A stretch of DNA of 64,000 bases from an uncultured Lentisphaeria bacterium (GTDB taxonomy: Bacteria; Fidelibacterota; UBA8477; JABMPR01), in the NCBI GenBank assembly GCA_964508765.1, contig CAZDVD010000010.1, positions 14,595 to 78,594 of the forward strand. Direction: 5' to 3'. The notes under the pieces are model-generated. The model made no database searches. It was not told where the DNA came from and worked only from the letters and a program-made list of their open reading frames with translations. Shown piece by piece: positions 11,685 to 33,844 of the stretch (within the stretch, counting starts at the first letter, position 1; each line of letters starts with the position of its first letter). Position numbers and translations under genes: made by a program.

Positions 11685-11693
11685 CGGCTTGGT

Positions 11694-12992: not shown

Positions 12993-12996
12993 CTTC

Positions 12997-15426: not shown

Positions 15427-15459
15427 CCCTTCCCAAAGAAAGATTCAAAGTGATATTTA

Positions 15460-16890
15460 TTACCGCCTGATTTGAGTTTTTTCAACAGACGGCGGAAAAA
15501 ATTGTTCTTGAGCTATGAGCTTCAAAACGCTGTCCATATCCCCGATTTGAGTGAAAGTCTCCGACAGGGATCCAGCATTCAGATAATTATTGATAGAGAG
15601 CAGGATCATAGCCTGATCAAGCGCCAGATATTGTGGCGCCACGACTCCACTTTCTGGATTAAGTGAGTCAAAAAATCCATATTTTCCACGAATTGGAAAT
15701 TGTTGCTCCATTTTATAAAGATTATCTATCACCCATCGCGGAGCATAAGCTAATGCCAGGATGCTGGCATGTGGAGTAATAACATCACTCCGGCTACCTT
15801 CTTTCCGGCTGCCTATTTCTGAAACTCCGAATGGTTCATAACCCCCTCCAGGTATGGCACAGGGGCTCACCCCCCAAACAGGGTACCTTAAATGATTCAG
15901 GGCATAATCACGATGAATGACCACTATTCGGGCATTATTCTCACCCATTCCTGTTGACGCATACTTTTGTTCATCAACAAAAAGACTAGGCATTAAATAT
16001 TCAAACATACTGCCGTTCCAGGCTGGTAAAACCGGCAAAGTATCACCATATAAATAGTACCCACTCGTGAAGGACATAGAATTATTATATTGTTGAGAGA
16101 AATATATGGGTGAGCCCCATTGGTCGATAGTATCTGGTAAAACTCTGTAAAGATCATTCCAATGGCTTTCTGGTACCTGACCCCAGGCCATGCTAAGATA
16201 GCTTATTATCCTGCTCTCACTGCAGAGCATACCATAATGGTAGGGAGAGTAGGCCTGTTGCTCCAGGTCAAAACCCAGGTAAAATTGCCCGAGATCAGGA
16301 TCAAAAAGCCAGGAGAAATCCACTCCGGTTTGGATCTCAGCGCATATTGCATTCAACTCAGGATATTTCACAGCGATGACTGCCACACTGGCATATAACC
16401 AGGCAGCATCCACACTGGAAATATATTGGCGAGTAACCTCCATGGCAGGGATGCTGTACCAATTGAGGTGAAATCCATGATAGCGTTCCATCTTTTGCAA
16501 AGAGCTCAGAGTCCGCTCCAAATGCTTCAGTGCTTCATCATGGGAAATGAGCTTCAGATCTTCAGCAGCAGACACACAGACCAAATACAAACCAATATTT
16601 GTAGACGAGGTATAATCTGACGATTCAAATCCATTGGTATGGACATTATCAGGCATCAAACCGGTACTACTATCCACAAAGGTTCTGAAAAAATTCCAGG
16701 TGTTCGCTGCCAGTTTTCTCAGGTAGAGGCTGTCTTCAAGAGATATTTGCTGAATATCTGCCTGAATCAGGGAGATATTATTTAGTGGAGCCGTATACAG
16801 TACTGGTACTGGTGCTGGAGCGGCACAGCTTGTTAACCATCCCAGGATCAGTATAGAGAGGAACTTTGCTATGATAAGTTTTTTCTTCAT
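15460..16890 (-). CDS. Periplasmic/OM lipoprotein, a distant member of the same (alpha/alpha)6 glucanase clan (DUF3131/GH144-like)
   Basis: Lipobox GWLTSC. WNFFRTFVD..TGLMPDN...SSTNIGLYLVCVSAAEDL...YHGFHLNW parallels the neighbouring gene. The motif WNGSMFEYLMPSLF is one I recall from cyclic beta-1,2-glucan synthase/SGL-clan proteins (memory only). Confidence 0.55.
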   Translation of the reverse strand: MKKKLIIAKFLSILILGWLTSCAAPAPVPVLYTAPLNNISLIQADIQQISLEDSLYLRKLAANTWNFFRTFVDSSTGLMPDNVHTNGFESSDYTSSTNIGLYLVCVSAAEDLKLISHDEALKHLERTLSSLQKMERYHGFHLNWYSIPAMEVTRQYISSVDAAWLYASVAVIAVKYPELNAICAEIQTGVDFSWLFDPDLGQFYLGFDLEQQAYSPYHYGMLCSESRIISYLSMAWGQVPESHWNDLYRVLPDTIDQWGSPIYFSQQYNNSMSFTSGYYLYGDTLPVLPAWNGSMFEYLMPSLFVDEQKYASTGMGENNARIVVIHRDYALNHLRYPVWGVSPCAIPGGGYEPFGVSEIGSRKEGSRSDVITPHASILALAYAPRWVIDNLYKMEQQFPIRGKYGFFDSLNPESGVVAPQYLALDQAMILLSINNYLNAGSLSETFTQIGDMDSVLKLIAQEQFFPPSVEKTQIRR

Positions 16891-16938
16891 ATGAACAGAT
16901 CTGGCAGTTTCACTTTTGAATGAATCCTTGTCGTCCTA

Positions 16939-19332
16939 TCACATCGTCACTTGCACCAAGCAGGTTTCACCCAACTGAGGTGGAATCACATTGCCCTCAA
17001 TGGATTTGCCGTCCACCTTGAATTCACTGACACCCGTGCTTCTATTGCTGGGATTAGCTACGTGAATGGTATAGATAGTGCCTCTGAATTTTCTGGTCAT
17101 GGTGTATTGCTTCCACTCTGCCGGGATAGCTGGATCAATTACCAGACCTTTCCTACTGGGACGGATACCTAGGATACGTTCTGAAATCATCTTGTATAAC
17201 CAAGTTGCAGATCCAGTATACCAGGTCCAGCCCCCTCTCCCATAATAAGCTGAATCAGGACCGTCAATATTTCCCGGCGTCACAAAGGGTTCACCAAGAT
17301 ATCGTTCTGGATTCATCCCATTGTGAATGGGTGAAATACCCTGATAAACTTTGAATGCCAATTCAGGTTTCCCCTGAAGGGCAAATGCCCAAATCGCCCA
17401 GGTAGCAGCATGGGTGTATACGCCGCCATTCTCACGGGTTCCTGCAGCATAACGTGAGAGATATCCAATGTGGGAATCCGGTTTGGTATAGGCTGGTGCT
17501 AAAAGCAGAGGACCAAAATCTTTTAAGAGATATCTCTCAACTGCCTCAAGGGATTTTTTCCCTTGCTCAGCACTTGCACTGCCACTGATAACCGACCATG
17601 TCTGGGCATTAAGATAGATTTGTCCTTCTTCACACTCGTGGCCACCAATAATCTCCCCATTATCTTTGGTAGCCCGGAAAAACCAATCGCCATCCCAGGC
17701 TTGATCTTGAATGACCTGTTGTAAAGCTTGTGCTTTGCCCTTGAATAGCATGGTACTGTCATCATCATTGAGCTCAGCACTAATGTCAATGAATTCGTTA
17801 AGGATGTAATACAGAAAGTGAGCTAACCATATAGACTCACCTTGCTCCTCCAAACCAACAGCACTCATACCGTCGTTCCAATCCCCTGCTCCAATGAAAG
17901 GCAGTCCACGTGGACTGGTGCGTTGCATGGAACGCATGATAGATTTCAGGCAATGCTCGTAGATTGAATCACTCTTTTCATAATCGTAATAAGCAACCTG
18001 CTCATGAAGAAATGCAATATTATCGGTCTCTTGCAAATAGGAGATCACCAGGAAAGGTAGCCACAAATAATTGTCGGCAATACCCGAATGTAGGCCTTGT
18101 TCTGTAATGGGATGCCACCAGTGTAAAACCGAGCCATCCATATATTGATGAGCGGCATGGAGCTTGATCTGCTTCTCAGTTTTGGTCACATCAATGGGTA
18201 AAAAGACCTGGCTATCCTGCAACTGGTCACGAAAACCATAAGCACCACTTTGTTGATAATAGGCACTGCGACCATAGATACGGGCTGAAATAGCCTGATA
18301 TTTTAGCCAACCGTTGGCCAGGATGTTAATAGATGCATCTGGCGTTTCCATTTGATGTGCATCTAACATGTCTGACCAGTAGGTTTTCACCTCATTCAGA
18401 GCGGCTGCTCTTTGTGTCTGAGTTTGGAATTTGCTGATGGCCGTTTCGCAGATCTGAGGCGTATCATACATACCTACGAGATAGGCCAGTTTTTGTTTGC
18501 CTCCTGGAGCCAGTTCAATGGGTATTTTCAAGCTGGCAATGGCATCATGCCAGAGTCCCTGTTTGCCCGGAGAAGTATTTTTCGCAACTGCTGCCGGAAT
18601 ATCAATACTCCCATACTGACCGAGAAATGATTCCTTATCACATTCAAATCCTGTGGCTTTTTCTGTGCAGGAAAGAAAAGCAGTAAAGGGATGTTCGATA
18701 TTCCAGTGACCCCGGGTGCCTAAGGCTATATCCCAAAGACGCTTATTGGCCCATATGGTACTGGCAGGTGCATCATATCTGGTCTCAATGAAATTTTTAT
18801 GAAATTCCCTGTGGTGATCGTTGCTGGAACCCAAGGCCCACTCAAAATAGTTAAACAGGGTCAATGATCGAGATTGTGTGCCCAGATTTTCAATTTCCAC
18901 ATCCCAGACTTCCAATTGTTCATTCATAGGAATAAACAAAGTCAGAGTGATTCGTATATCACCCAGTCGGGAATGAAAGATTGTATATCCAAATCCATGT
19001 CGACATTGATACTCATCCAGTTCCGTCCGCACTGGCAACCAGGTGGGGCTCCAAACCTCGCCACTCTCATTATCCCGAACATAGAGGTACTTACCCCAAT
19101 CATCTTTTACCATATCCTGATGCCAGCGAGTAATCCTGTTAAATTCGGAATGATCCAACCAGCTGAATCCTCCACCACTTTGTGAAATCGTCAAGCCATA
19201 GCGGCCATTGGATAAAACATTAATCCAGGGTTTGGGCGTTCTGGGGGTCTTGATGATATATTCAGTCCCCTCTTGATTGAAATAGCCATAGTCTGTTTCA
19301 AATTGAGGCTCAGTTTTTACAAAGTTAGCCAT
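16939..19332 (-). CDS. GH94 glycoside phosphorylase (cellobiose/cellodextrin/laminaribiose/beta-1,2-oligoglucan phosphorylase family); cytoplasmic
   Basis: 797 aa with no signal peptide. N-terminus YGYFNQEGTEYIIKTPRTPKPWINVLSNG...GGGFSWL...RITRW. Further motifs are FRDQLQDS, GAGDWNDGM (catalytic Asp context) and RENGGVYTHAATW. Confidence 0.85.
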   Translation of the reverse strand: MANFVKTEPQFETDYGYFNQEGTEYIIKTPRTPKPWINVLSNGRYGLTISQSGGGFSWLDHSEFNRITRWHQDMVKDDWGKYLYVRDNESGEVWSPTWLPVRTELDEYQCRHGFGYTIFHSRLGDIRITLTLFIPMNEQLEVWDVEIENLGTQSRSLTLFNYFEWALGSSNDHHREFHKNFIETRYDAPASTIWANKRLWDIALGTRGHWNIEHPFTAFLSCTEKATGFECDKESFLGQYGSIDIPAAVAKNTSPGKQGLWHDAIASLKIPIELAPGGKQKLAYLVGMYDTPQICETAISKFQTQTQRAAALNEVKTYWSDMLDAHQMETPDASINILANGWLKYQAISARIYGRSAYYQQSGAYGFRDQLQDSQVFLPIDVTKTEKQIKLHAAHQYMDGSVLHWWHPITEQGLHSGIADNYLWLPFLVISYLQETDNIAFLHEQVAYYDYEKSDSIYEHCLKSIMRSMQRTSPRGLPFIGAGDWNDGMSAVGLEEQGESIWLAHFLYYILNEFIDISAELNDDDSTMLFKGKAQALQQVIQDQAWDGDWFFRATKDNGEIIGGHECEEGQIYLNAQTWSVISGSASAEQGKKSLEAVERYLLKDFGPLLLAPAYTKPDSHIGYLSRYAAGTRENGGVYTHAATWAIWAFALQGKPELAFKVYQGISPIHNGMNPERYLGEPFVTPGNIDGPDSAYYGRGGWTWYTGSATWLYKMISERILGIRPSRKGLVIDPAIPAEWKQYTMTRKFRGTIYTIHVANPSNRSTGVSEFKVDGKSIEGNVIPPQLGETCLVQVTM

Positions 19333-19371: not shown

Positions 19372-20439
19372 TCAAAATTTGAGCGAAATATCAAAACGTT
19401 GGACAAAATCCAGACGACTAAAGTCCTCATAGTTGTACTGGAATTCAAGATTAAAACCACCGATGTTGAGATCAAGTGATCCACCCAGTGTGAGACCTTT
19501 CTCAGAATCTTCCTGAAACAGGTTTTGATAGCCCATTTGTAGAGCAATCATGGGCATGGGACGCCACTCTACACCCAGATTTATATGTTCATAATTGTCA
19601 TTGGGGTGTACGGCGTCGGTTTCAATGGTTACTTCTCCAAATTTCATTGGGGGTAAATCATAGGCTAATCCGAAGCGAAAGGTCAGAGGGATATCCCAGG
19701 CATTGGTGTAAAGGCTGGCAGGGATATGAGAATTATCTCCCGAAGCTTCAGAGTTCTGATCATACTGAATGAGTAAATCCTTACCGCCGTATTGTAATTT
19801 TTGTCCAAAATTGGATATCGTAGCACCAATTCGCAATCGACGATTCTCAAAATAGTACAGGCTCCCAAAATCCATTGCGATCCCCGAGGCAACTGAATTC
19901 CAGATGCGTTGATGGATGAACTTTGTATTAAACCCGATACTGAAAAAATCCGTAAGTGCTCTGGCATAGGACAAAGTCATGGCCAGATCATTGGCTGAGA
20001 AATACTCTCCCGTACCCTCAGGTTTTTCCACAGTTCTTACCAGCATATCTTTGGTGGAAAGACTGACCAGACCTAATCCCAGGGATTGCGAACCACCTAT
20101 GGGAATAACAACTCCGTAATAGCTCAAATCCATATCAGCGATCCACTGGCATTGCTCAAGTTGAATGCTGGGGCCATCAAAAAAGGCACTGGCTGCAGGA
20201 TTCCAATATAGGGCGCTGGCATCATTCACCGACGCTGCCACAGCACCACCCATGGCGACACTACGGCCACCCAGACCAATTTTCAGGAATTGAGCAGTAG
20301 TTGTTCCGGTTTTACTGATGACATCTGAAGCCCTGGATGGATTCCATAATCCCAATAATAGAAAAATACCAATGAATATAATATCTGCGCGAATGGGTCT
20401 GATATGCATATGCTCTGCTCTGATAGATTTCCTCATCAT
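19372..20439 (-). CDS. PorV/PorQ-like (FadL-fold) outer-membrane beta-barrel
   Basis: 355 aa. N-terminal signature GTTTAQFLKIGLGGRSVAMGGAVAASVNDASALYWNPAA. Amphipathic beta-strand pattern with a C-terminal ...FDISLKF. Starts 3 bp after the 1100-aa gene. Paralog at 52863-53891. Confidence 0.7.
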   Translation of the reverse strand: MMRKSIRAEHMHIRPIRADIIFIGIFLLLGLWNPSRASDVISKTGTTTAQFLKIGLGGRSVAMGGAVAASVNDASALYWNPAASAFFDGPSIQLEQCQWIADMDLSYYGVVIPIGGSQSLGLGLVSLSTKDMLVRTVEKPEGTGEYFSANDLAMTLSYARALTDFFSIGFNTKFIHQRIWNSVASGIAMDFGSLYYFENRRLRIGATISNFGQKLQYGGKDLLIQYDQNSEASGDNSHIPASLYTNAWDIPLTFRFGLAYDLPPMKFGEVTIETDAVHPNDNYEHINLGVEWRPMPMIALQMGYQNLFQEDSEKGLTLGGSLDLNIGGFNLEFQYNYEDFSRLDFVQRFDISLKF

Positions 20440-20442
20440 TGA

Positions 20443-23400
20443 CTACTTAATCACTGCGAATTTGCCAATAAAATTACCAGACTGCTGGCTATCGAGATAG
20501 AAAACGTATACTCCTGGCGCCAGATCCAAACCGTCCTTGGTTTGTAGATTCCAAGCCAAGGCCCCATCATCCATTCCTGAAGGATGATGCAAGGTGATGA
20601 TATGATCTCCACTTACATTAAAGATGGTGATCTCAGCTTGTTGTGGTAAATGAATAAAATTAACCTTCCTTTCACCACGTCCAGAAGCACTGGAGCGCTG
20701 ACTTTCCCATGCGGCAGCAGCCACATATGGGTTAGGTACAACGGCCACTTCACTCACCTGATTTATGGCAAGTTCCTGATCGACTTCAGCAGCAAAAGAG
20801 GTAAAAGCGAATTCATCACCGCTTCTGAAGGGTAAATGTATAGCAATGTTGGCTATATCACCATCCTCTGGAGGTATTAATTCTCCTTCAGGTGACACAA
20901 AATATACGCGCCAGGTGTCTCGCCAGATACCTCTGACTTTCAACTGCAATCTTAGATAATCCCCAACGGAGAGTAAACTGTCGGGGCTATCTGAAGGCTC
21001 CCAGAGGTAGGTCCGCACCTTTTTTCCACTGGTTTTATCAATGACACGGAAATTGGAAAGATATTTAAAGCTGTTTTTTAACATCGAGCTGTCTGAGACC
21101 CCATATTGGACCTCATAAGTGGCTGGGAATCCGTCAATTCTCCCTGAGAAATTATCCCAGTAGGAATCCCGCTCAGCGTACATCAACACATTGGAAACAC
21201 CCTGGACCCAACCTGTATTTTCTGGATCTGGTGCCACCGTGTCATTTCTGACAGAGACACGCATCCCTGCGAACAGTGGGTTGGTATCTTCATTGTTTAA
21301 AGCTTCCGATTCATCGAATATCAGTATTGTATCGGCAGGATTAGATTCGACTTTTATGAGACTGTATCTGATGGTGTCCTGATGACTTGTATCATCAAAA
21401 CTGATCCGAAATTCTCCATCCGTAACCAATGCAGGGTCGATAATACTGATACTAATATCTCCTGTCCCAAACCCCTGGATGCGCTGCAGCCCTCCTGCAA
21501 TTTCAGGCTCCACATATCCTGCAATCGGTGCATTTGGTGTCACATAGACCGTATTCTTGTCAACGGTAACCTCGCCAGCCCGATTCTTGACTATAACCTT
21601 GGTGCATTCTGAGGGTAAAATATTCTTCTCTTCCCACCCGCGATCATACGAAACAACGGCATAATAATAATCCATACCATTTTGAACATCTGTATCGACC
21701 CAGGAGTGTCGTAATCCTGTATCGTTCCCCAGGAAATACTCAATTCCATGCACATCAACATTAAAAAATCCCTGGACCCCATCTTCTTTGTCAAACTGCG
21801 CGACGGGTTCGTGGAAAGTTGCTTCACCATACCCATTAGTAATGATATAAGCATCATTGAAAGAAGCGTCTGTGGCTTTGTATATCCGATAACCTTCGAA
21901 ATCATAACCTCCGGTTTCTGGATGTGTAAAGGCAGGGTCATCTAAGGAGCTTTCAGCAAAATCATCCCAGTATAGGGTCACCTCTCCATCTCCTGCTACT
22001 GCTGAGACTGTGGGCTTTTCAGGAGGACGAGCAAAATTATAATTGGCATTGTAGATATTTTGGACCACTTCCTTGTTGCGTTTCAGGTCATCCAAACTTT
22101 CGCCAAAAACCAGGGCCATTGAAAAGCGCTCTGTATGATTTGGTGGCATGATAAACGGACCAGATCCGAATAGGAACGCGATATTTCCCGGAAGGGATAC
22201 ATTGCTGAAATGATAGTTAGACACGCGGTCCCAGATGACCTCATCCTGACTGTACTCCACTCCCTGGCCAAGATAAAATGCATCAAAAGCCGTGAGACCA
22301 ATTTGGTCAGATTCATCCTTATCGGTGATATCATAGTTGGGTTCACCAGTGGTCGGTATACCATCACCCTCACCTGTGTCCCCTGTACCTGCCAGACCAT
22401 CTGCACCTGTATCATGGAGTTCGGAATCCCAGTCACCGTCATTATCGATACCATCATCACGGGCTTCATCAATAAGCGGATCGTCCAGACCGGCACCTGT
22501 AAAGAAATTTTTATACTTCAAACCCATATGCACAGATTCATTTTCATCAATGAGACCATCAAGATCATCATCAACCCCATTAAAGGGGATGTCATTATAG
22601 CTCAAACCACGCTGATATACTCTGACGCTATCATACTGATCCACAACGAGACTGTCACCTGAGAAGCGGTAGAAACTCCCTGATCCACCTTCACTGAAAC
22701 TGGTAAGTATGCGTCCCAGATCATTCTCATAATCCATATTTTGATAATCGATTAAGACCACTTCATCTGCCAGGTTTCTTGCCTGGAAATCCGTTGAACC
22801 AAGTTCTGGTGAAGGTCCAGACGAGGCGTCCTCATCATTATCGATACCATCAAATGGGTTTCCTGGACTTTCCAAAAAGGCATATCCCGCGTAACCGGTT
22901 TGCCAGTTGCCTTCACCTAGATCATTGGAATCCCAGGTATAGGCCAAATCTAGTGATAGGTCGTAGAAGGCCTGGTCATCATTGCTGTCATTTTGACCGC
23001 CCACGCCTGCGTCTGCATACATACCAAACACCGTTTTGGGATAAGTGGTAGTGGATACATTGGTGACATCATAATGCCAGAAAATAATATCTTCAGCCAG
23101 CACATTGGACCATTGGAAACCGCGTACTGCTACGCGCATTCCCAGCCCTCCCCGTTGTAGTTCCAGTGAATCAGAGTTGAACAGACCCCAAAAATCCTGC
23201 CCATAATCCTGATAGTCATCCATGACGAAATAACTCTCCTGGTCAGCATTGGTCTTCCGGCCAAAATAGCCGTTCCATGAACCACTCCAGTCGGCAGCCT
23301 GATCGGGCCAATAAAGGGGCCAGGTATTGGGATCATCACTGAGAGCGATATGGTCCTGATCAGGATTGGCAAAACCGGCCAGCGGTTGCCATCCGAACTC

Positions 23401-23745
23401 AATCCCTGTAGAGCCTTCTTCGTAATGTTCTCTATACCCACCTTCGACTATGTGGGTGATTCGTCCATCGTCCAGTTGGACCTCAGCAGCAACCAATGGG
23501 TAAATTCCATCCATATATGAGTGATTGGAGCCCTTGGGCCACACACCAGATGGTTGTTTGCCCCACCAGGCTACTTCACCAAAATTCCAGAACAAAGTCT
23601 CCACCAAATTCCCATTATGAAGACCCTGTTTGCGATTAATACGATCCCCGTGCAGCTCATCAATATTATTTTGGGCAACAAGTGCCTGGGTAAAACTCAG
23701 GAGAAGGCTTACTGTAAAAATGAAAGCTTTGTTTTGATTTCTCAT
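20443..23745 (-). CDS. 1100-aa secreted protein of unknown family with thrombospondin-type-3-like Ca-binding Asp repeats, an FN3-like module and a variant CTD
   Basis: Signal peptide ...TQALVAQ. Motifs are SDDPNTWP, NADQESYFVMDD and DGIDNDGDWD...GADGLAGTGDTGEGDGIPTTGEPNYDITDKDESDQIGLT, plus FEGYRIYKATD. C-terminus VVPNPYV..SGRGERKVNF...GVYVFYLDS...GKFAVIK. Paralog at 53894-57805. Confidence 0.8.
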   Translation of the reverse strand: MRNQNKAFIFTVSLLLSFTQALVAQNNIDELHGDRINRKQGLHNGNLVETLFWNFGEVAWWGKQPSGVWPKGSNHSYMDGIYPLVAAEVQLDDGRITHIVEGGYREHYEEGSTGIEFGWQPLAGFANPDQDHIALSDDPNTWPLYWPDQAADWSGSWNGYFGRKTNADQESYFVMDDYQDYGQDFWGLFNSDSLELQRGGLGMRVAVRGFQWSNVLAEDIIFWHYDVTNVSTTTYPKTVFGMYADAGVGGQNDSNDDQAFYDLSLDLAYTWDSNDLGEGNWQTGYAGYAFLESPGNPFDGIDNDEDASSGPSPELGSTDFQARNLADEVVLIDYQNMDYENDLGRILTSFSEGGSGSFYRFSGDSLVVDQYDSVRVYQRGLSYNDIPFNGVDDDLDGLIDENESVHMGLKYKNFFTGAGLDDPLIDEARDDGIDNDGDWDSELHDTGADGLAGTGDTGEGDGIPTTGEPNYDITDKDESDQIGLTAFDAFYLGQGVEYSQDEVIWDRVSNYHFSNVSLPGNIAFLFGSGPFIMPPNHTERFSMALVFGESLDDLKRNKEVVQNIYNANYNFARPPEKPTVSAVAGDGEVTLYWDDFAESSLDDPAFTHPETGGYDFEGYRIYKATDASFNDAYIITNGYGEATFHEPVAQFDKEDGVQGFFNVDVHGIEYFLGNDTGLRHSWVDTDVQNGMDYYYAVVSYDRGWEEKNILPSECTKVIVKNRAGEVTVDKNTVYVTPNAPIAGYVEPEIAGGLQRIQGFGTGDISISIIDPALVTDGEFRISFDDTSHQDTIRYSLIKVESNPADTILIFDESEALNNEDTNPLFAGMRVSVRNDTVAPDPENTGWVQGVSNVLMYAERDSYWDNFSGRIDGFPATYEVQYGVSDSSMLKNSFKYLSNFRVIDKTSGKKVRTYLWEPSDSPDSLLSVGDYLRLQLKVRGIWRDTWRVYFVSPEGELIPPEDGDIANIAIHLPFRSGDEFAFTSFAAEVDQELAINQVSEVAVVPNPYVAAAAWESQRSSASGRGERKVNFIHLPQQAEITIFNVSGDHIITLHHPSGMDDGALAWNLQTKDGLDLAPGVYVFYLDSQQSGNFIGKFAVIK

Positions 23746-23755
23746 TCGGTCATTC

Positions 23756-26425
23756 TCACATTACGAATTTCATACCCACAAGCACTTCACGAGGAGCCTG
23801 GAAATAGTCTGGACGTGTCAGGAAGTCCTCCAACGAGTGAATGGGTTGTTCAGGCACATAGGTAGGGATGAGACTGTAGGATGGACTGCCAGTATCTTTA
23901 TTGACATCCCTGGCATTTTTTCTATCCATTACATTCTTAATTAAAAAATAAACAGCCAGACGAGAATCTCCCATCGGGATTCCATACTCTCCCGTGAGAT
24001 CAACATTTAAAGTGACAGGCTTTCTTTCAGAATTTTGAAAGGATGTGCGCTCCCCTTGAAATTCCGGGGTATATGGTAATCCAGAACCAAACTGACTGAT
24101 GGCGCTCAAGTGCCAGTTTTTTTGACTCATGGTCATGGAAAAATTAATTGTGTGTGACTGATCCCAATCAAGGGGAACCACCTGGATTTCACTGCTACGC
24201 GGTGGATCACTTTGACGATCATAGAAGACACTGCGAGGGTCTGAAGCATTTCCTTCGGCAATCTGATATGTATACTCGATTGAGCCAGAAAAGATGCTGT
24301 ATTGTTTCAATGATAAGGACAGGGCGACACCTCGGACATTGCCATAGTCTTGATTTTCATAGCGTGCATAGCTATCACCAAGGATATACAACTCATAAAT
24401 TTGAGTACCGACTAAATTCCTCATATCCTTGTAAAATCCGGTAACGTCCAGAACCAGATTTTGGGCCACCATTTGCTGCAAACCGAACTGATAGATCACT
24501 GTTTTTTTAGGCTTCAAGGAAGCATTGCCGACAATACTTTTTAAATCTCCACCCCTGACTTCAAATTCTGAATTATGATAGAGAAATTCGTAAGCAGGTA
24601 TCTGAAAAAAATGCCCGTACGAGATGTGAATGGCACCTTTGTCACTGATAGGAAAGGATAATCCAAGTCGCGGAGAGAATTTTGAGGAGTTTGGAGAATC
24701 TTTAAATGCGTTCTCCCCAGTGCCTGAGTAGCTGCCATCTGGATCCCTGAGATCCATCGGCTCCTGCCCATCTGGTTGGAAATAATCCCAACGCAGGCCT
24801 GCCACCAGCACAATATGTTCTGCCTCAATTTTATCCTCCAGCCAAACACCAACTTCTAATGGACTGTGAGTGTACTCGTTATTGCTCCAATGCTCCTCAG
24901 GAAATATTTCCGGGAGCCAGGCAGTGCTACGATCCAGCTTAATGCCATAATCATGCTGCCAGAGTTCGCTTTTACGAGCTTCCATTCCAGTTTTAATTTC
25001 ATGGTGCCGATTGGGTTGAGTGATGAGATTGAATTTGAAAGTATTTACCGTGCTTCTACGATAAAAATGATTCATTACCATGCCACCCGTGTAGAATCCA
25101 TAGCCCAATCGTCTGGATAATAAAGTGCTCACATAGCGGTCATCCAGATAATCCTCGAAGACGTAATTACTTCTCTCAGAATTGAAACGAGCGATATTTA
25201 TGGTATAAAAAAGTTTTGAACTTGGGAAATGGTTCATTGATAAACTTGTCTGGTAACTGTCCTTGAATTGTTTGAGCCTACCTTGAGGATTATACTTGTA
25301 CAAATGGTCATAATCAGCCCATGACTGCTTGGTGTAATCAGTGGACACGTCGACCCGGAATTTGGGACCGAAATGTTTTGATAATTTGCCATGTGTGGTG
25401 AAGGTGTTATTATAATTCATGGCTACGGTTTTACCGCTGCCTGATTGAGAAACACTCCAATTTTCAGGATCCGGATCATCAATATTTGAGGAGTCAGAAG
25501 GCAAAAATTCTTCAACCCCATATAGGTGACCATCCTTGGATTGATTTTTCACACCAAGAACAAAGCCGGCATCTTCACCGAGAATTTTCAAGGGTCCCGT
25601 GAGAGTTAATTCCCCACTCATGTTCTGTAGAGGATCAACATTGTCAATATTCAGAAAGGGAGTTGTATGACTGGAAATAAAATCACCACCAAAAATATTT
25701 GCCGATAAGCCAAATTTTGAAGCGCCACTCTTGGTGACGATGTTTACAACGCCGCTCATGGCCTGTCCATACTCAGCGCTAAAAGTGCCGCTAATTACCT
25801 TAATTTCCTGAATACCGCTATTTTCAATATTGACTGCCATTTCACCGTTGTAAGGGTCGGTGACACTTATGCCATCAAGCATATAACTCACTTCTCCACC
25901 CCTACCACCACGGAAGTGACCATCTACGACGCCAGCCTGCAGACCCACGAGGTCGCTCATTTCCTGAACAGGCAATTTTTCTATTTCATCAGCACCGATC
26001 ACAGCCATGGTACTTGTGCGGTCGCGTTGAATATCAGGTCTTGTGGCGATAACCTCAATTTGGGCATCCACCTCAATCACTTGAGGGGTCATCTTAAAAT
26101 CATGAATGGAATTGAAGTCGGTAAGAACCTGAATATTATCCTGGCGGATCTGCTGATAGCCAATCATTTGAACATTGAGACTATAAACACCGGGGGGAAC
26201 GTTTAGAATCATATAATAGCCTTCTAAATCTGTAGCAGCCCCGTAATTAGTATCTGTGAAAAAGACGTTTGCACCTGGAAATGCTTGACCAGTTTGGGCT
26301 TCGGTTACCCTCCCACTGATCTTACCTGTCGTACCAGAAATGACCATGACGGGCAGCAATTGAAGCAACAGGACCATCAATAAAACTGATCTCCGTATTA
26401 TCCTTCTCGAATTATTTATGTCCAT
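23756..26425 (-). CDS. TonB-dependent receptor with an N-terminal carboxypeptidase-regulatory-like domain (SusC-like position, no SusD partner)
   Basis: I prefer the ATG at 26425 (MDINNSRRIIRRSVLLMVLLL...). GKISGRVTEAQTGQAFPGANVFF...GYYMILNVPPGVYSLNVQMIGYQ. Plug motifs are VSYMLDGISVTDPYN and ISGTFSAEYGQAMSGVVNIVTK. C-terminal barrel ...VLVGMKFVM. Confidence 0.9.
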   Translation of the reverse strand: MDINNSRRIIRRSVLLMVLLLQLLPVMVISGTTGKISGRVTEAQTGQAFPGANVFFTDTNYGAATDLEGYYMILNVPPGVYSLNVQMIGYQQIRQDNIQVLTDFNSIHDFKMTPQVIEVDAQIEVIATRPDIQRDRTSTMAVIGADEIEKLPVQEMSDLVGLQAGVVDGHFRGGRGGEVSYMLDGISVTDPYNGEMAVNIENSGIQEIKVISGTFSAEYGQAMSGVVNIVTKSGASKFGLSANIFGGDFISSHTTPFLNIDNVDPLQNMSGELTLTGPLKILGEDAGFVLGVKNQSKDGHLYGVEEFLPSDSSNIDDPDPENWSVSQSGSGKTVAMNYNNTFTTHGKLSKHFGPKFRVDVSTDYTKQSWADYDHLYKYNPQGRLKQFKDSYQTSLSMNHFPSSKLFYTINIARFNSERSNYVFEDYLDDRYVSTLLSRRLGYGFYTGGMVMNHFYRRSTVNTFKFNLITQPNRHHEIKTGMEARKSELWQHDYGIKLDRSTAWLPEIFPEEHWSNNEYTHSPLEVGVWLEDKIEAEHIVLVAGLRWDYFQPDGQEPMDLRDPDGSYSGTGENAFKDSPNSSKFSPRLGLSFPISDKGAIHISYGHFFQIPAYEFLYHNSEFEVRGGDLKSIVGNASLKPKKTVIYQFGLQQMVAQNLVLDVTGFYKDMRNLVGTQIYELYILGDSYARYENQDYGNVRGVALSLSLKQYSIFSGSIEYTYQIAEGNASDPRSVFYDRQSDPPRSSEIQVVPLDWDQSHTINFSMTMSQKNWHLSAISQFGSGLPYTPEFQGERTSFQNSERKPVTLNVDLTGEYGIPMGDSRLAVYFLIKNVMDRKNARDVNKDTGSPSYSLIPTYVPEQPIHSLEDFLTRPDYFQAPREVLVGMKFVM

Positions 26426-26456
26426 GGTCTTTCCTGATATCTGCTTATGGATAATT

Positions 26457-26490
26457 TCAAGGTGGCAATGTTGACTTACCACCACCTTGA
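26457..26490 (-). promoter_or_regulatory. Intercistronic hairpin in the leader of the TBDR gene
   Basis: A 9-bp inverted repeat, TCAAGGTGG (26457-26465) / CCACCTTGA (26482-26490), with a 16-nt loop. It lies between the CBM9-like gene stop (26565) and the TBDR start (26425). No U-tail, so the function is unknown. Confidence 0.3.
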
Positions 26491-26564: not shown

Positions 26565-28328
26565 TTATTTAAGCATCAACATTTTTCTGGTGGCAACCTG
26601 GCCACCCACTGTCGCTTTGTAAAAGTACATTCCTGTACTGACCAGCTCTTGGTTACTTCCCATACTATTCCACGAGAAGCTATGTGAGCCTGCTGATAGA
26701 AAGCCATCATGTAAAGTAACAACATGCTGACCCAGGACATTGAATATCTCTAAGGTTGCGTTTCCTGCCTGGGGTACAGCAAGATCGATAACTGTCCCAG
26801 CGTTAAACGGATTAGGATAATTCTGAGCAAGACTAAAGTTCACGGGACCTGATGCAAAGTCGTCTGCAGAAACAGGGTCGCTACTTAAGACAACCCCGCG
26901 ATACATGAAGTATTTCTCAAAATTGGGATCAGCCCATTGGGTTCCCCACCATTCTGGAGCATAGTCAGCGATGGCGGCATCATATTCATCAGCGCTGGAA
27001 TAATCCAAATCCCAGATGACGGCACTCAAACGGACCGTATCACCCACCTCATATCCATAATCAGCAGTATTTATTACCAATTCAAGCGAATAACCTGCAT
27101 CAGCACCGTTTGTCCCTGTATGAGTAACTGTACCGGCAGGCTCGAAGCTGACGCCCTCGGCAGAACCAGTAGGAACCTGGTCGTTGGTTTCAAAAGAGAT
27201 TCCTTCTCCCTCAACACCGGAAAAGTACATCGCTTTTATCTCTTTACGAGCAGCAGGGGCATAGTCACCCTTGTCGGTCATCCACAGGAATAAACCATCC
27301 GCTTCCCAACCTGGAGACCATTTGCCTACTGAAGCATCATCAGATTCCACTGCGATATAGAGTAACTCACCCTTATGGACAAACTTAATAGAGGTCTCGC
27401 TGGCATCGGTATAATCATTGGTCGAATCACTCCATTGTGAATAGTAGCCACCTGTGGAACCATTGGCACTGTGTCCCACCAATACTGTTTCAGCACCAGT
27501 CCAGAAAGCTTCCGTCACTTGACCATCCATGACGATGTTATCCTCAGTGGCTAGAGCAATGCGTGTAGGTGGATCTGACAAGCGCAGTATACGCATGTCT
27601 GGACCCCATTCGCTACCCCACCAGGCTTTGAAAAAACTGCCTACTTCCCATCCTTCACCAGCTACACCAGTATATCCATCTGGATCAAATATATTTATGA
27701 GTACCTGGACATCACTATAAGCATCTGTATAGCCAAGATCGGCAAGATGAATGACCATTTCTGCTGTATATCCTGAATCTACACTTGTCGTATCATTTAC
27801 AATGGTACCTGATTTTTTGTAGCCTACTCCTTCTGCTGAAGTTGGATAAAGCCCTGGAAGCTCTAAATGGATATCGGGATCTTCACCCTCCAGATTAAAG
27901 TAGAGTTTATACTCTACATCTGTTCCGCTGGCATCCTTCACCTTCATGAACAGACCATCACCTTCCCAGCTGCTGTTGAAACGACAGACAGATTTGTCAT
28001 CTGAATCCAGACTGATGTATAGATCCAATCCATTATGTACCATTTTGACAATTGTACTGGTTGTATCTATGTAAGGTGCCTGGACTTCAACTCCACCTGT
28101 AACAGCAAAGTCTACGTCGCCCGTGCCCATACCAGCATTAAACACCAATCTGTCATAGCGGCGAGCCCATGCATTTTCATCAAGCACAGCATCCACTACA
28201 GGGGCGGTTTCAACTGATACGATCTTAAGAAATGACGGGTCTACATGACTACCCGCCACCACTGCTACTGGATAACTCAAAGTGGTGAACACCACTAAAA
28301 GAGCCAATATCCCGTGTAATTTTTTCAT
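26565..28328 (-). CDS. Secreted protein with two CBM9/DOMON-like modules and a T9SS CTD
   Basis: I prefer the ATG at 28328, preceded by AAGGAGGA (MKKLHGILALLVVFTTLSYPVAVVAG). Two modules begin VVDAVLDENAWARRYD and MDGQVTEAFWTGAE, with LDLYISLDSDD / LLYIAVESDD. CTD QNYPNPFNAGTVIDL...RKMLMLK. Confidence 0.7.
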   Translation of the reverse strand: MKKLHGILALLVVFTTLSYPVAVVAGSHVDPSFLKIVSVETAPVVDAVLDENAWARRYDRLVFNAGMGTGDVDFAVTGGVEVQAPYIDTTSTIVKMVHNGLDLYISLDSDDKSVCRFNSSWEGDGLFMKVKDASGTDVEYKLYFNLEGEDPDIHLELPGLYPTSAEGVGYKKSGTIVNDTTSVDSGYTAEMVIHLADLGYTDAYSDVQVLINIFDPDGYTGVAGEGWEVGSFFKAWWGSEWGPDMRILRLSDPPTRIALATEDNIVMDGQVTEAFWTGAETVLVGHSANGSTGGYYSQWSDSTNDYTDASETSIKFVHKGELLYIAVESDDASVGKWSPGWEADGLFLWMTDKGDYAPAARKEIKAMYFSGVEGEGISFETNDQVPTGSAEGVSFEPAGTVTHTGTNGADAGYSLELVINTADYGYEVGDTVRLSAVIWDLDYSSADEYDAAIADYAPEWWGTQWADPNFEKYFMYRGVVLSSDPVSADDFASGPVNFSLAQNYPNPFNAGTVIDLAVPQAGNATLEIFNVLGQHVVTLHDGFLSAGSHSFSWNSMGSNQELVSTGMYFYKATVGGQVATRKMLMLK

Positions 28329-28415
28329 TACGTCCTCCTTTTTCTCGTTATTAAAACCTTGCACTGAAATCAAATCCCGTTGATTCCCATGGATCAAGGA
28401 TTCCTTTAAAATACA

Positions 28416-29438
28416 CTACTTTTCTGATTCCTGCTGACTACCACAGGATCTACGAATGACCTGTTTTAACGGAATTATAATTTTTTCTGTGGCTCGCTCA
28501 GTAGGATCCATCTTCATATTTTTCAGAAGAGATTCCCCTGCAAGATGGCCTAGACGTTCCAAGGGTACATGAACAGTGGTAAGTGCTGGATCCAGATAGG
28601 CTGCCAGCGAGATATCATCGAATCCAACGATGGCCAAATCTGAAGGCACAGAGAGTTTCAACACTCTGGCAGCTTCAATAGCACCAATAGCCATGGCATC
28701 GTTGGCAGCAAAAATAGCTGTGGGGGCCAGGTTGCGTTGCATGAGTGACAGCGTAGCCTGATATCCTGAGGCTTCTGTAAAGTTACCCATGACTTCCAGA
28801 TTCACATCTTGGTCAAGCTGATATTCATTTCTAGCATCGATATAGCCTCGATAACGTTCTCGGGCATCATAATTGTGTTCACCACCGTGAATGAAAGCAA
28901 TCCGTTTGTGACCAAGCTGGGATAAGTGATGCACCATCTCCTTGGCTGAATTATAGTTGTCTAATAAAATGGTGGTCGAATGGGTTACGTCCATCTCACA
29001 GGCCATAAAGACCACGGGTATCTCATTATTCAATTGTGCCATAAGGCTGCGGTAATCCTGGGCTGAAGGCATCATAATAATGAGTCCGTCAATTCGACCG
29101 CTTTTTACAAAACCGTTGATCGTCTTGATCTCTTCTTCCTCATCGTGAGCACTTGAAATAAGAATCTGGTGATCATTTTTTGAGAGATAGCGGTTTATCC
29201 CCTGAATAATCTCTGAAAAATAGAGTGCACTGGCATCGGGGAAAATCAAGCCCACGGTTTTTGTCTTTTTCCGCTGTAATCCCAAAGCACTGACATTGGG
29301 AACAAAGTTGAGTTCTTTAATGATAGCGCTGACTCGTTCACGGGTAGCAGATCTAACCTTATCAGAGTTATTTAAAACCCTGGATACGGTTGCAGTCGAC
29401 ACTTTTGCTTTTGCTGCAACATCATTAATAGTTGTCAT
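28416..29438 (-). CDS. LacI/GalR-family transcriptional regulator
   Basis: I prefer the ATG at 29438, giving MTTINDVAAKAKVSTATVSRVLNN (the classic LacI HTH). A periplasmic-binding-protein-like sugar domain follows (VGLIFPD..., AIFAANDAMAIGA, IVGFDD). Confidence 0.9.
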   Translation of the reverse strand: MTTINDVAAKAKVSTATVSRVLNNSDKVRSATRERVSAIIKELNFVPNVSALGLQRKKTKTVGLIFPDASALYFSEIIQGINRYLSKNDHQILISSAHDEEEEIKTINGFVKSGRIDGLIIMMPSAQDYRSLMAQLNNEIPVVFMACEMDVTHSTTILLDNYNSAKEMVHHLSQLGHKRIAFIHGGEHNYDARERYRGYIDARNEYQLDQDVNLEVMGNFTEASGYQATLSLMQRNLAPTAIFAANDAMAIGAIEAARVLKLSVPSDLAIVGFDDISLAAYLDPALTTVHVPLERLGHLAGESLLKNMKMDPTERATEKIIIPLKQVIRRSCGSQQESEK

Positions 29439-29481
29439 TGATTTACCATAAGTAGAATGTATTGTCTCCGTAATTGATAAA

Positions 29482-29495
29482 TGTAAACGGTTACA
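29482..29495. promoter_or_regulatory. LacI/CcpA-type operator palindrome upstream of the LacI gene
   Basis: TGTAAACGGTTACA fits TGWAANCGNTNWCA at every constrained position. The extended palindrome is AAATGTAAACGGTTACATTT (29479-29498). It lies 44-57 nt upstream of the ATG at 29438. Confidence 0.55.
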
Positions 29496-29752
29496 TTTTA
29501 AATATATCCATATGTATACCTTTGTCAAGTCATATATATTGATTTTAAATACACGATGTATAGTGTTGTTTTTTTTATCTTTATTGATGTTTAATATTAT
29601 TTTATCTGTCTAATAGTTATACCATATATTCCTTTACTGTTGGCAGGATATTTCTATTATCCACTATGCATATTCATATAAACGATTATAATATTCATCG
29701 AAACGTACAGATTATCATTGATATTATTATACTTATTCATTTTTTGATAGAA

Positions 29753-29766
29753 TGTAATGGTTTACA
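29753..29766. promoter_or_regulatory. Second, weaker LacI-type half-palindrome pair
   Basis: TGTAATGGTTTACA keeps the outer arms TGTAA/TTACA, but the central CG is replaced by GG. It overlaps the nominal ATG (29757) of the truncated cargo relic. Confidence 0.35.
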
Positions 29767-30221
29767 TAGTATTATATTTTCCTTTGAAAGACGGGGTCAG
29801 TGTTGACATTCCATTGTCGCATTATTCTGATCTGGATCTTGGTCTTATGCATATCTTCCTGTTCAAGGTCGATGGTGGTGATGGTGCTACATCGATCTGG
29901 TTTGATAATTGGTATTTCTACTCAACAACCACGGGTGTAGAGGAAAATCTAGTACCGGAACATTTTGCTCTCCAGCAGAATTTTCCAAATCCATTCAATC
30001 CTTCTACAACAATCCGTTATAGTTTGATTGAAACAAGACATGTCGTCTTGAAGTTATATAGTATCAATGGTCAGGAAGTAGCAACTCTGGTTGATGCTAT
30101 GGCCAGTTCTGGTGAATATAGCTATCACTTCGATGCCAGCCATCTTGCTGCAGGAACGTATATATATTCCTTAACAGCAGGTAGTAGGACTGAAGTTCAA
30201 AAGATGGTACTGATTAAATAA
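29757..30221 (+). pseudogene. 5'-truncated relic of a CBM + CTD cargo gene, paralogous to the 3' ends of 3892-5232 and 5383-9372
   Basis: No signal peptide and no SD. Homology starts abruptly at about residue 10: SVDIPLSHYSDLDL..FLFKVDGG...IWFDNWYFYS versus WVSLDIPLTTYPNVDL..FQFKVEGN...VYWDNIYFHS. The CTD matches that of the 1329-aa protein at about 75 of 98 positions by hand count. The upstream DNA is very AT-rich. Confidence 0.55.
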
Positions 30222-30286: not shown

Positions 30287-30598
30287 GGGATCATACATTT
30301 GCGCATATATACGGTGCAAGTCTGATGATTTCAATCATTGGCTGCGTTTTAATGAGAGTCATTGGATAATGTCAGGTTAATATTTCCGCCTAATTCAATT
30401 AGAATCATAAGAAATGTTAACCAATTCCATATTGATACCAATAATGAAATTGGATTTGTATGTGAGGACTTGACTGTGCGTTGGACTTCGCATATTTTAA
30501 ATGGTTCGAAACATTCTAAATTGTTCCATAAAAGGGAAAACCCTATCAACTCTACAGTACTCATGCAACCGGGTACTTCATCCTCAGTAATAGACAAT

Positions 30599-33500: not shown

Positions 33501-33844
33501 AAACGGTCATTCTGGCAAATCCAATCATAGAAGAAGTCTTTAAGAATTTCATCAGCAATGCGATTAAATACGCTGCTGAGGGTAAACACTTGATCATCGA
33601 TCAGTCAAAAGGAGATAATAGTCTCGAAGTGAGTGTCATTGATTTTGGGACCACCATCCCTGAAAACAAGCGTAAAGCAATATTTCTTCGGAGTGTCCAA
33701 CTTGAAGAAGGGAAAAAACGAGGTCATGGACTGGGTCTGGCCATTGTGAAACGCATAGCGGAAGCTCATAAAGCTCAAATCGGTGTTAAGCCTAATATAC
33801 CAACAGGGAATATATTTTTCATTAAAATCCCGTGCGCCTCGTGA
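30599..33844 (+). CDS. Sensor histidine kinase with an HTCS-like periplasmic beta-propeller (Reg_prop repeats) + Y_Y_Y domain, one TM segment, HisKA and HATPase_c. It has no receiver or DNA-binding domain.
   Basis: I prefer the ATG at 30599 (MFKPSLLCVLIVIQTLLFHTTLSAQ). There are about 14 repeats of the ..D..G.LW(V/I)GT..GL..(Y/F) type. YAYRMEGFESEWNNVG...YTFIVKATNSDGVWS (Y_Y_Y). TM WWFLTLVTLTIIGLIYSLIQY. H-box ITHDLKNPIG. G-box GHGLGLAIVKRIAEAH. The stop follows immediately afterwards. Confidence 0.85.
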   Translation: MFKPSLLCVLIVIQTLLFHTTLSAQTEELHFRHYTTVDGLSQSSVLCFEQDSRGFLWFGTYYGLNRFDGYEFKIFQADPTDSSSISHSLVGAIHEDHKGTLWVGTDDGLDIYNSNFEIFTHLRHDPQDNTSLSHNVVRAIFEDSQNRLWVGSRGGGLNLYDPEIGGFKHYFYDPDDASSISHNTISDIIEDPRGCLWIATDGGLNRYDFESKQFTRFTHDPSNSASVSLNNVYRLFLEDSGALWVGTWLGGLNRFDPETGIFHHYDLSNGNGKDAGANIIRAIEKDSNGDLWVGTWGAGIYRYIPEQDKFISFRKDVSDPASISSDQITAIFHDKSGGLWVGTDFGGLNKRKLDSEKFKHYHTTPASLKNANNENVRALLVSGENDIWIGSADGLHHIHGKAGTYSAYYSDDSDPYSISNNSIRSLFLDSKGNIWAGTESGLNRYNSATDNFTCYFFSPRITGEEPVDMCWTINEDHEGMIWIGTFGGGLIRLDPSTDEFSIYVNDKNDPASLQNNSIWCIIEDHENKLWIGTDNGLEQLETNRHIFPSLPTETDLQKSLHNSKVLSLFQDMNNNIWIGTSSGLYFFDFESELLSRFTTEDGLSSNNIQAITPGNPGSLWLSTSSGVSEFNTLSKSFKNYSVEDGLQGIEFHVNANAVGPDGKIYLGGINGYNVFHPNSISASQYQPNIYLTDFQVFNSSVPIGAKLSDRVILNQSLINTEHIDLTYNENVFSLSYAALDFYASEKLNYAYRMEGFESEWNNVGDRRFATYTNLDPGDYTFIVKATNSDGVWSDKHLNIGISIAPPFWETWWFLTLVTLTIIGLIYSLIQYRLRLLHIRTRVLQAEVEKQTVDLVSMNQELQQTDMMKELLLDIITHDLKNPIGVVNSLSDYMLAEDPDNHELQVIRSSSRSVLQVMANATTLARVSMNEEINKEELDLCEILSDTVDNFMPLLKENNIEVENRIQQKTVILANPIIEEVFKNFISNAIKYAAEGKHLIIDQSKGDNSLEVSVIDFGTTIPENKRKAIFLRSVQLEEGKKRGHGLGLAIVKRIAEAHKAQIGVKPNIPTGNIFFIKIPCAS

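Follow-up and report, generated by a model that had tools for sequence, protein, structure and literature searches.

The 64,000-nucleotide stretch analyzed here (contig CAZDVD010000010.1, positions 14,595 to 78,594; GenBank assembly GCA_964508765.1), referred to as the window, carries two copies of a three-gene outer-membrane module within loci for glycan utilization. Each copy, or triad, encodes a TonB-dependent receptor (TBDR), a giant secreted protein of an unnamed family, and an outer-membrane (OM) barrel of the PorV/PorQ family. Because the arrangement recurs in the 80 related loci examined, it is far beyond chance. It is somewhat probable that the triad forms the OM core of a glycan-utilization locus, in which the giant would be exported through a type IX secretion system (T9SS), held on its cognate barrel, and serve in a role of the SusD or surface glycan-binding protein (SGBP) type.

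The SusC/SusD paradigm accounts for glycan capture in Bacteroidota and leaves open how the sister phyla, abundant from oceans and sediments to hot springs and digesters, take up polysaccharide fragments. These sister phyla are rich in T9SS-tailed carbohydrate-active enzymes (CAZymes) and, judging from the window and from the neighbor families listed for related loci, appear to be without SusD. More tentatively, non-Bacteroidia lineages of the Fibrobacteres-Chlorobi-Bacteroidetes (FCB) group may import glycans by an unrecognized machine comprised of a TBDR, a giant Ca-binding beta protein with an uncleaved C-terminal domain (CTD), and a private PorQ-like barrel. The giant would cap or feed the TBDR, being exported by the T9SS and held permanently on the barrel, and the machine as a whole would stand as a counterpart of SusCD, either independent or ancestral, in Fidelibacterota/Marinimicrobia, Ignavibacteriota, Calditrichota, KSB1, WOR-3, Gemmatimonadota, and Rhodothermales.

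Two triads in two glycan loci

The six genes of the two triads all lie on the reverse strand of the window:

57802-60627, reverse strand: TBDR of triad 2 (TBDR 2), with CarboxypepD_reg and Plug domains
53894-57805, reverse strand: giant of triad 2 (giant 2), 1303 aa, a paralog of giant 1
52863-53891, reverse strand: barrel of triad 2 (barrel 2), 342 aa, PorV/PorQ family
23756-26485, reverse strand: open reading frame (ORF) of the TBDR of triad 1 (TBDR 1), GTG start at 26485, with CarboxypepD_reg and Plug domains
20443-23745, reverse strand: giant of triad 1 (giant 1), 1100 aa, unnamed family
19372-20439, reverse strand: barrel of triad 1 (barrel 1), 355 aa, PorV/PorQ family, an OM barrel of the 14-strand type

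The true start of TBDR 1 is likely the ATG at 26425, from which the translation would begin MDINNSRR and run into a signal-like hydrophobic stretch; this ATG coincides with the end coordinate of the preliminary description of this DNA. In triad 1, the TBDR and giant genes are separated by 10 bp (GAATGACCGA) and the giant and barrel genes by 3 bp (TCA). In triad 2, the TBDR and giant genes overlap by 4 bp in an ATGA stop/start, and 2 bp lie between the giant and barrel genes. Giant 1 and giant 2 are 40% identical across 866 aa (BLASTP, E 1e-167), with 29% identity across the C-terminal ~300 aa in addition. The two giants are paralogs, and the two triads are likewise paralogous. A preliminary description of this DNA had reported three packed genes with gaps of 10 and 3 bp ahead of beta-glucan genes, together with a second, diverged triad at 52863-60627 ahead of alpha-glucan genes. 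The former holds on re-reading of the coordinates and spacing, and the latter is borne out by the paralogy and by the downstream genes of glycoside hydrolase (GH) families GH31, GH97, and GH13 and the SSF family.

The presence of CarboxypepD_reg and Plug domains in both receptors confirms their identity as TBDRs. Plug (PF07715) scores 32-33 bits in both, with a cut-off of 23.9, and the receptor barrel regions align with several TonB receptor models; the orthologs carry TonB_dep_Rec_b-barrel or OMP_b-brl_4. The narrower label of a SusC-like receptor is not retained. The SusC/RagA model TIGR04056 gives 42.6 bits in TBDR 1 and 53.4 bits in TBDR 2 against a cut-off of 368, and this match is confined to the N-terminal region (model positions 2-213 of 981).

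The genes surrounding the triads were assigned by Pfam:

28416-29528, reverse strand: LacI-family regulator, upstream of triad 1
26565-28397, reverse strand: 610-aa T9SS-tailed protein between the LacI gene and TBDR 1, matched by a T9SS tail and FlgD_ig only
9948-19332, reverse strand: predicted beta-1,2-glucan catabolic and import genes (GH94, two GH144-type genes of which one is T9SS-tailed, an ABC solute-binding protein, and two permeases)
42782-52801, reverse strand: predicted alpha-glucan genes downstream of triad 2 (GH31, an SSF symporter, GH97, and a T9SS-tailed GH13)

The GH94 protein of locus 1 has its best PDB match in the GH94 domain of cyclic beta-1,2-glucan synthase (E 1e-155), and the GH144-type proteins match the endo-beta-1,2-glucanase 5gzh and BDI_3064 (5z06). 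Because the best solved relatives of both GH94 and GH144 act on beta-1,2-glucan, the triad 1 locus is predicted to be specifically a beta-1,2-glucan locus. The triad 2 locus is predicted from its gene families to be an alpha-glucan locus. In the functional sense, both are polysaccharide utilization loci (PULs): locus 1 combines a LacI regulator, a T9SS protein, the triad, GH94, two GH144, and an ABC transporter, while locus 2 combines the triad with GH31, SSF, GH97, and GH13, and loci in other phyla are composed likewise.

SusD families have no match in any ORF of at least 150 aa in the window, in agreement with the earlier statement that no SusD-like gene is present. Because the window encodes 10 canonical T9SS-tailed (Por_Secre_tail) proteins, a T9SS is very likely present in the source organism.

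Conservation of the triad and domains of its proteins

The synteny set consists of 80 loci from species-representative genomes. Their hosts belong to at least eight phylum-level lineages, including Neomarinimicrobiota, Calditrichota, WOR-3, Stahlbacteria, KSB1, Ignavibacteriota, Kryptonium, Gemmatimonadota, and Rhodothermales. All three genes are found in 69 of the 80 loci, and a contig end explains the missing gene in the remaining 11, which upholds the proposed cross-phylum linkage of the giant with TBDR and PorV-family genes. The order TBDR, giant, and PorV-family barrel, on one strand and with tight spacing, is kept in 67 of the 80 loci. Two complete loci have the permuted order TBDR, barrel, and giant (L057, 5974-13582; L075, 5839-13546). 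Two of the contig-cut loci (L058 and L073) open with the giant and lack a barrel in the 7 kb downstream of it, which fits this permuted order.

Several members of the set have features of their own. A KSB1 locus (L060, 1736-17537) contains two complete triads in tandem. In the complete Gemmatimonadota genome CP070758.1 (L082, 6796-9978), the receptor is called as two ORFs of 639 and 313 aa, a split that might reflect a frameshift, a pseudogene, or an error in sequencing. Metagenome-assembled genomes (MAGs) related to Melioribacter roseus and Caldithrix abyssi also carry the module.

Co-divergence of the three genes was measured as the per-locus log-ratio of similarity to window paralog 1 versus window paralog 2. 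Spearman correlations are 0.90 for giant and TBDR, 0.78 for TBDR and barrel, and 0.69 for giant and barrel. The log-ratios are strongly correlated, so the triad diversifies as a single unit.

Downstream of the triad (n = 85), the neighbors include T9SS tails (32), sugar solute-binding proteins (15), permeases (14), CBM20 (13), GH94 (8), GH13 (6), and GH144 (5); upstream (n = 75), they include T9SS tails (20), LacI regulators (18-19), and response regulators (9). SusD families are absent from the 25 most frequent families listed for the neighbors of related loci. An ortholog of giant 1 on a 3.0-Mb contig (L081) lies in a locus with LacI, a T9SS protein, TBDR, giant, PorV, GH94, GH2, and GH144, and the pair of a LacI regulator and a CTD protein of ~580-610 aa also precedes the triad in orthologous loci. 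Orthologs of giant 2 lie in LacI/GH13/SSF loci in a Gemmatimonadota genome and on one other complete contig. From these placements, the ortholog groups of the giant therefore track substrate class across phyla.

The cultured species Ignavibacterium album JCM 16511 encodes the giant IALB_0487 in a cluster of TBDR, giant, PorV-family barrel, and CBM20/T9SS-tail protein (IALB_0486-0489). This stand-alone cluster of four genes (L084; CP003418.1 524191-547760, at 7209-16157) adjoins an extracytoplasmic function (ECF) sigma factor and a PAS hybrid kinase. In about ten Ignavibacteriota/Melioribacteraceae loci, a T9SS-tailed protein of ~500-530 aa lies directly downstream of the barrel; by analogy, it looks like a conserved fourth component comparable to SusE/F.

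The giants have no match in Pfam or NCBIfam and nothing significant in the PDB by sequence. A PDB search with a 64-sequence giant profile returns only an insignificant match to the C-terminus of PorU (E 0.28). More than 5,000 homologs are found by word-indexed search, and at least 1,645 clusters at 50% identity (E <= 1e-30) are found by exhaustive hidden Markov model (HMM) search. The nearest relatives, at 84-88% identity, are in Neomarinimicrobiota MAGs, which places the window in that lineage. Among the source names seen, two depart from "hypothetical protein": "T9SS type A sorting domain-containing protein" (once) and, from UniRef, "FlgD Ig-like domain-containing protein" (once). With neither a Pfam or NCBIfam model nor a paper found, the family is uncharacterized, as first supposed.

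Both giants contain a Sec signal peptide without a lipobox Cys. Giant 1 was modeled with AF2 from a 64-sequence alignment (pLDDT 80.8). The model consists of a signal helix (aa 1-24) followed by four parts:

22021-23634, reverse strand: N-domain of giant 1 (aa 38-575), a predicted beta-supersandwich with conserved Asp-rich, putative Ca-binding loops that are low-confidence in AF2
21541-22011, reverse strand: beta-sandwich of giant 1 resembling fibronectin type III (FN3-like; aa 579-735; AF2)
20791-21513, reverse strand: variable beta-rich region of giant 1 (aa 745-985), predicted as two beta-sandwiches (AF2)
20446-20748, reverse strand: CTD of giant 1 (aa 1000-1100), seven predicted strands (aa 1000-1097/1099; AF2)

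The N-domain is the most conserved part of the giant. When modeled separately (AF2 pLDDT 82, pTM 0.80), it is matched by Foldseek to the supersandwich N-domain of dextran dextrinase 9ju0 (E 6e-7, TM 0.33), and further matches include the N-domains of GH94 phosphorylase and GH116 enzymes and the P1 domain of YidC. The model suggests a galactose-mutarotase-like beta-supersandwich, with a resemblance at the level of the fold only. Its Asp-rich loops had been likened to thrombospondin type-3 repeats, a comparison that fails: the TSP_3 model PF02412 has no match at E <= 10 in the N-terminal 600 aa, the motifs are few, and giant 1 contains one Cys. What giant 1 does have is a single complete DxDxDGxxD/E motif, along with about three conserved loops that are rich in Asp and of the DxDxDG, dockerin, or EF-hand kind.

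The FN3-like module is matched by Foldseek to FN3 arrays with a probability of 0.95-0.97 and low whole-chain TM-scores, and Pfam fn3 has no match. The N-domain, FN3-like module, and CTD are conserved across the family, and aa 745-985 are variable. This region has the lowest family conservation (0.52), is 25% identical between giant 1 and giant 2, and is ~200 residues longer in giant 2, making it a candidate specificity determinant. In a whole-chain Foldseek search, the best match is PorZ, and PorU is also present; these matches are weak and of a generic multi-beta-sandwich kind, with TM <0.2.

The CTD of the giant has the layout VVPNPYV-[insert AAAAWESQRSSASGRGERK]-...ITIFNVSGDHIITL...APGVYVFYL...GKFAVIK, in which the insert (...AAWE...ASGRGER...) sits after the PNPY motif. 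Aligned by hhalign to seven canonical CTDs of the window, the C-terminus profile of the family reaches a probability of 96.5% (E 9e-10), which points to remote homology with the window's own type-A CTDs. The domain combines this remote homology to bona fide CTDs with a seven-strand sandwich at the extreme C-terminus and with the PNP and terminal Lys motifs. Por_Secre_tail (cut-off 27) finds nothing at E <= 10 in the native tail of giant 1, reaches 17.5 bits when the insert is deleted, and scores 12.3 bits on the native tail of giant 2. The type-B CTD model CHU_C gives 13.5-16.6 bits (15.9 in giant 1), also below its cut-off of 27. The earlier notion of a variant T9SS-type C-terminus is therefore sustained by the alignment and by the VVPNPY and GKFAVIK motifs and falls short of the Pfam and NCBIfam thresholds. 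The CTD insert is modeled with pLDDT <50, yet its residues E1013, G1021, and R1025 are invariant, and it is conserved as strongly as the domain cores. A conserved insert of low model confidence is the signature expected of a binding epitope.

Both barrels belong to the PorV family as defined by the PorV_fam model NF033709 (cut-off 90), which scores 197.4 bits in barrel 1 (model positions 1-326 of 326) and 166.3 bits in barrel 2 (1-325 of 326). The equivalog models are not reached: PorV (NF033710) gives 65 and 45 bits in barrels 1 and 2 against a cut-off of 250, and PorQ (NF033711) gives 98.7 and 105 bits against 220. The triad barrels thus appear to be a separate PorV/PorQ subfamily, somewhat nearer to PorQ. 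Flavobacterium johnsoniae PorV (6h3i, E 1e-5) is the sole solved relative of barrel 1 by sequence, and no PorP/SprF model is found among the NCBIfam matches of the barrels. The 355-aa barrel had been described as PorV-like, and a plain FadL transporter was considered in its place; this is rejected, because Toluene_X (PF03349) gives 26.7 and 19.7 bits against 29.7, in short N-terminal matches, and PorV_fam is strong.

Proposed mechanism and alternatives

Synteny, co-divergence, and analogy to known systems lead us to infer a fixed complex of receptor, giant, and barrel that captures glycans. In the proposed mechanism, Sec would export the giant by its signal peptide, which lacks a lipoprotein Cys, and the T9SS would carry it across the OM by means of the divergent CTD. 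The CTD would then remain uncleaved, with no transfer to lipopolysaccharide (LPS), and would stay on the PorV/PorQ-like barrel of the neighboring gene, as in the PorZ-PorQ and PorU-PorV pairs. The giant would thereby be fixed at the cell surface beside or over its partner TBDR. Docking to the receptor and barrel may fall to the conserved parts, namely the CTD, the FN3-like module, and the N-terminal supersandwich with its Ca-type Asp loops, while the variable beta region, possibly together with the supersandwich, may bind the locus-specific oligosaccharide and pass it to the TBDR for TonB-powered import. Breakdown and uptake would be completed by periplasmic enzymes (GH94, GH144, GH31, or GH97) and by transporters of the ABC or SSF type. 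A SusD or surface-glycan-binding role would thus be reached through T9SS anchoring in place of a surface lipoprotein. T9SS export, CTD retention, receptor contact, and glycan binding by the giant are each inferred, and the first interpretation of this DNA is, overall, partly supported: its genomic predictions all held, and none of the findings named in advance as refuting it turned up.

Several results weigh against this mechanism. Native giants have no match to PF18962 or TIGR04183 at E <= 0.01, and the hhalign alignment of the CTD spans just 58 columns. The structural matches of the N-domain have low TM-scores (0.2-0.33), and no carbohydrate-binding modules are detected by sequence in the giants. 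The presence of a T9SS is deduced from cargo tails, its core genes being located beyond the 64-kb window. The co-divergence statistic depends in part on species phylogeny, and some loci, including that of I. album, contain the triad and a CBM20 protein with no adjacent glycoside hydrolases.

An unlikely alternative is that the barrel is a dedicated secretion shuttle or targeting factor only. The giant would then be released or LPS-anchored as a free or loosely held glycan-binding or adhesin protein, and its linkage to the TBDR would reflect co-regulation in place of a stable complex. Cognate secretion and targeting shuttles are established for type-B CTD cargo (PMC12618676), many other T9SS-tailed proteins in these loci manage without a private barrel, and contact with the receptor is itself deduced. 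However, adjacency of the TBDR and giant is as strict as that of the giant and barrel across at least eight phylum-level lineages, and co-divergence is highest for the giant and TBDR (0.90). The ATGA overlap and the 10-bp gap are signatures of translational coupling, which suggests stoichiometric production. Moreover, because ordinary CTD proteins need no private barrel, the combination of a special CTD insert and a private barrel implies a different fate for the giant.

It is quite improbable that, in place of a binding or lid protein, the giant is a surface enzyme that cleaves polymers at the receptor mouth and represents a novel carbohydrate-active family. The N-domain contains many invariant Asp, Glu, Trp, and Arg residues, the loci are glycan-degrading, and the supersandwich is common to aldose epimerases, domains of GH15-like, GH94, and GH116 enzymes, and polysaccharide lyase family 26 (PL26). 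In the matched enzymes, however, the supersandwich is an accessory N-domain, and neither an (alpha/alpha)6 nor a TIM catalytic domain is predicted in the giant. One conserved N-domain occurs in both the alpha-glucan and beta-1,2-glucan loci, which argues for a substrate-independent structural role, and these loci already have T9SS-tailed endo-enzymes (GH144 and GH13).

More improbable still is a module independent of the T9SS, with an Ig/FlgD-like C-terminus, a FadL/BamG-like barrel as platform or channel for the TBDR, and a giant that is periplasmic or arrives otherwise: the sub-threshold CTD with its weak FlgD_ig match, the weak match of the BamG model to the barrel (E 1e-4), and the use of FadL-fold barrels as non-T9SS platforms, such as BamG in the Bacteroidota beta-barrel assembly machinery (BAM; PMC12578637), are outweighed by PorV_fam scores of 197 and 166 bits versus 21.5 bits for BamG, by sub-threshold Toluene_X, by a CTD that keeps its PNP motif, G-Y strand, and terminal K-x-x-K with a 96.5% alignment to the window CTDs, by some family members whose annotation or score is that of T9SS type A or CHU_C, and by the confinement of the family to FCB-group lineages rich in T9SS cargo.

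Known systems and other genes of the window

The closest functional parallel is the SusC/SusD system, including the utilisome with its surface glycan-binding proteins. In both systems, a TBDR with an N-terminal carboxypeptidase-regulatory-like domain is encoded directly upstream of its surface partner, and the pair stands at the head of a regulated locus that also encodes inner-membrane sugar transporters and glycoside hydrolases, with paralogous copies per glycan. Unlike SusC, the triad receptor falls below the SusC/RagA NCBIfam cut-off. SusD is an alpha-helical lipoprotein of ~550 aa built on tetratricopeptide repeats (TPR), whereas the giant is ~1,100 aa (1,000-1,300 in the family), is predicted to be almost all-beta, and lacks both a lipoprotein signal and SusD homology. 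The triad also has a third obligatory gene, the PorV-family barrel, and its surface placement would presumably occur by the T9SS and not by lipoprotein export. Its hosts are mostly non-Bacteroidia FCB phyla.

The PorZ-PorQ and PorU-PorV pairs of Porphyromonas gingivalis resemble the giant and its barrel in joining a large, multi-beta-domain surface protein with a type-A-like CTD, presumably uncleaved in the giant, to a 14-strand barrel of the PorV/PorQ family. PorU and PorZ keep their CTDs, which bind PorV and PorQ, and it has been hypothesized in a review that cognate PorV-like barrels shield CTDs from cleavage (PMC10202324). In contrast to these single-copy, housekeeping parts of the secretion system, the triad is multi-copy, locus-specific, and TBDR-linked, and it resides in catabolic operons. 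Its barrels do not reach the equivalog cut-offs for PorV or PorQ, and its CTD carries a family-specific insert.

The type-B CTD cargo of PorP/SprF proteins, such as SprB with SprF in Flavobacterium johnsoniae, provides a precedent for a private, genetically linked OM barrel that sets the secretion and surface localization of one T9SS cargo. The giant differs from SprB in that its CTD is nearer to type A (PNP motif and hhalign alignment, with CHU_C at 16 bits), its barrel is of the PorV/PorQ family, and its role is tied to nutrient uptake as opposed to gliding adhesion. Cognate barrels have been established experimentally for type-B CTD cargo, while type-A CTDs are said to all use the general PorV (PMC12618676).

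In Bacteroides, small lipoproteins unrelated to SusD have been proposed to act as lids for TonB-dependent transporters outside the SusC family (Price et al., bioRxiv 2023; 10.1101/2023.03.17.533168). Like the giants, they show conserved proximity to their receptors and are proposed to cap them; they differ in serving small substrates, whereas in the triad their place is taken by a giant protein of the T9SS type that has a barrel to itself and occurs in glycan loci of other phyla.

A 2026 review of glycoside transporters mentions neither these phyla nor PorV. The genome paper of Melioribacter roseus names the genes Mros0761-0759 of an alpha-glucan operon "SusC, SusD and SusE" (PMC3534657). By gene order and context, Mros0759-0761 may be the same triad mislabeled. 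In the full-text literature, no description of the triad was found under PorV/PorQ paralogs, Ignavibacteria, Marinimicrobia, Caldithrix, SusD, and T9SS; subscription journals are mostly outside this literature, so an earlier description is possible. The preliminary description had read a dedicated PorV paralog per locus as the sign of a fixed complex, a non-SusD solution to glycan capture that is not known to be characterized. A cognate barrel for one T9SS cargo is already known in principle (PMC10202324; PMC12618676), so this part extends an existing principle. The triad joins known kinds of partnership, that of a TBDR with a surface partner and that of a T9SS cargo with a cognate barrel, in a combination that itself appears to be undescribed and is widespread.

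The triad may serve as a marker for the annotation of PUL-like loci and for substrate prediction in thousands of MAGs, as PUL predictors based on SusC/D miss such loci. If the proposed complex exists, it would assign a function to a giant family of at least 1,645 clusters lacking a Pfam or NCBIfam model. It would also widen the cognate-barrel concept, which covers type-B cargo and the attachment complex, to include type-A-like cargo, and it would tie secretion-system anchoring to TonB-dependent import. The hypothesis is testable in a cultured host, Ignavibacterium album JCM 16511.

The 610-aa T9SS-tailed protein encoded at 26565-28397 has no PDB match by sequence and may be a novel glycan-binding protein or enzyme of the cell surface. 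A T9SS-tailed protein of similar size (about 580-616 aa) fills the same slot between LacI and TBDR in orthologous beta-1,2-glucan loci of several phyla.

On the other side of the LacI gene, a 154-aa T9SS-tailed protein is encoded at 29757-30221, followed by a divergently placed sensor of 1160 aa at 30362-33844 on the forward strand. This sensor, which adjoins the LacI-controlled locus and the 154-aa protein, contains Reg_prop beta-propellers, a Y_Y_Y domain, and a histidine-kinase ATPase domain, and it resembles the periplasmic and kinase part of the hybrid two-component PUL sensors of Bacteroidetes.

Two further T9SS-tailed proteins are encoded at 34340-37390 and 38575-40410 on the reverse strand; one has a right-handed beta-helix and a weak peptidase C13 match, and the other has seven FG-GAP repeats. 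Between the two glycan loci, in an unusual placement, lies a DUF1670/helix-turn-helix (HTH) domain gene pair (275 and 285 aa; 41042-42723, reverse strand). T9SS-tailed proteins are also encoded at 3892-5232 and 5383-9372 (CBM4_9 and lamin-tail domain). Near the start of the window, a GH3 gene (831-2663, forward strand) is followed by a weak GH17-like ORF (2581-3792, forward strand) that overlaps it by ~80 nt and whose true start is probably further downstream; both GH3 and the GH17-like ORF fit beta-glucan metabolism.

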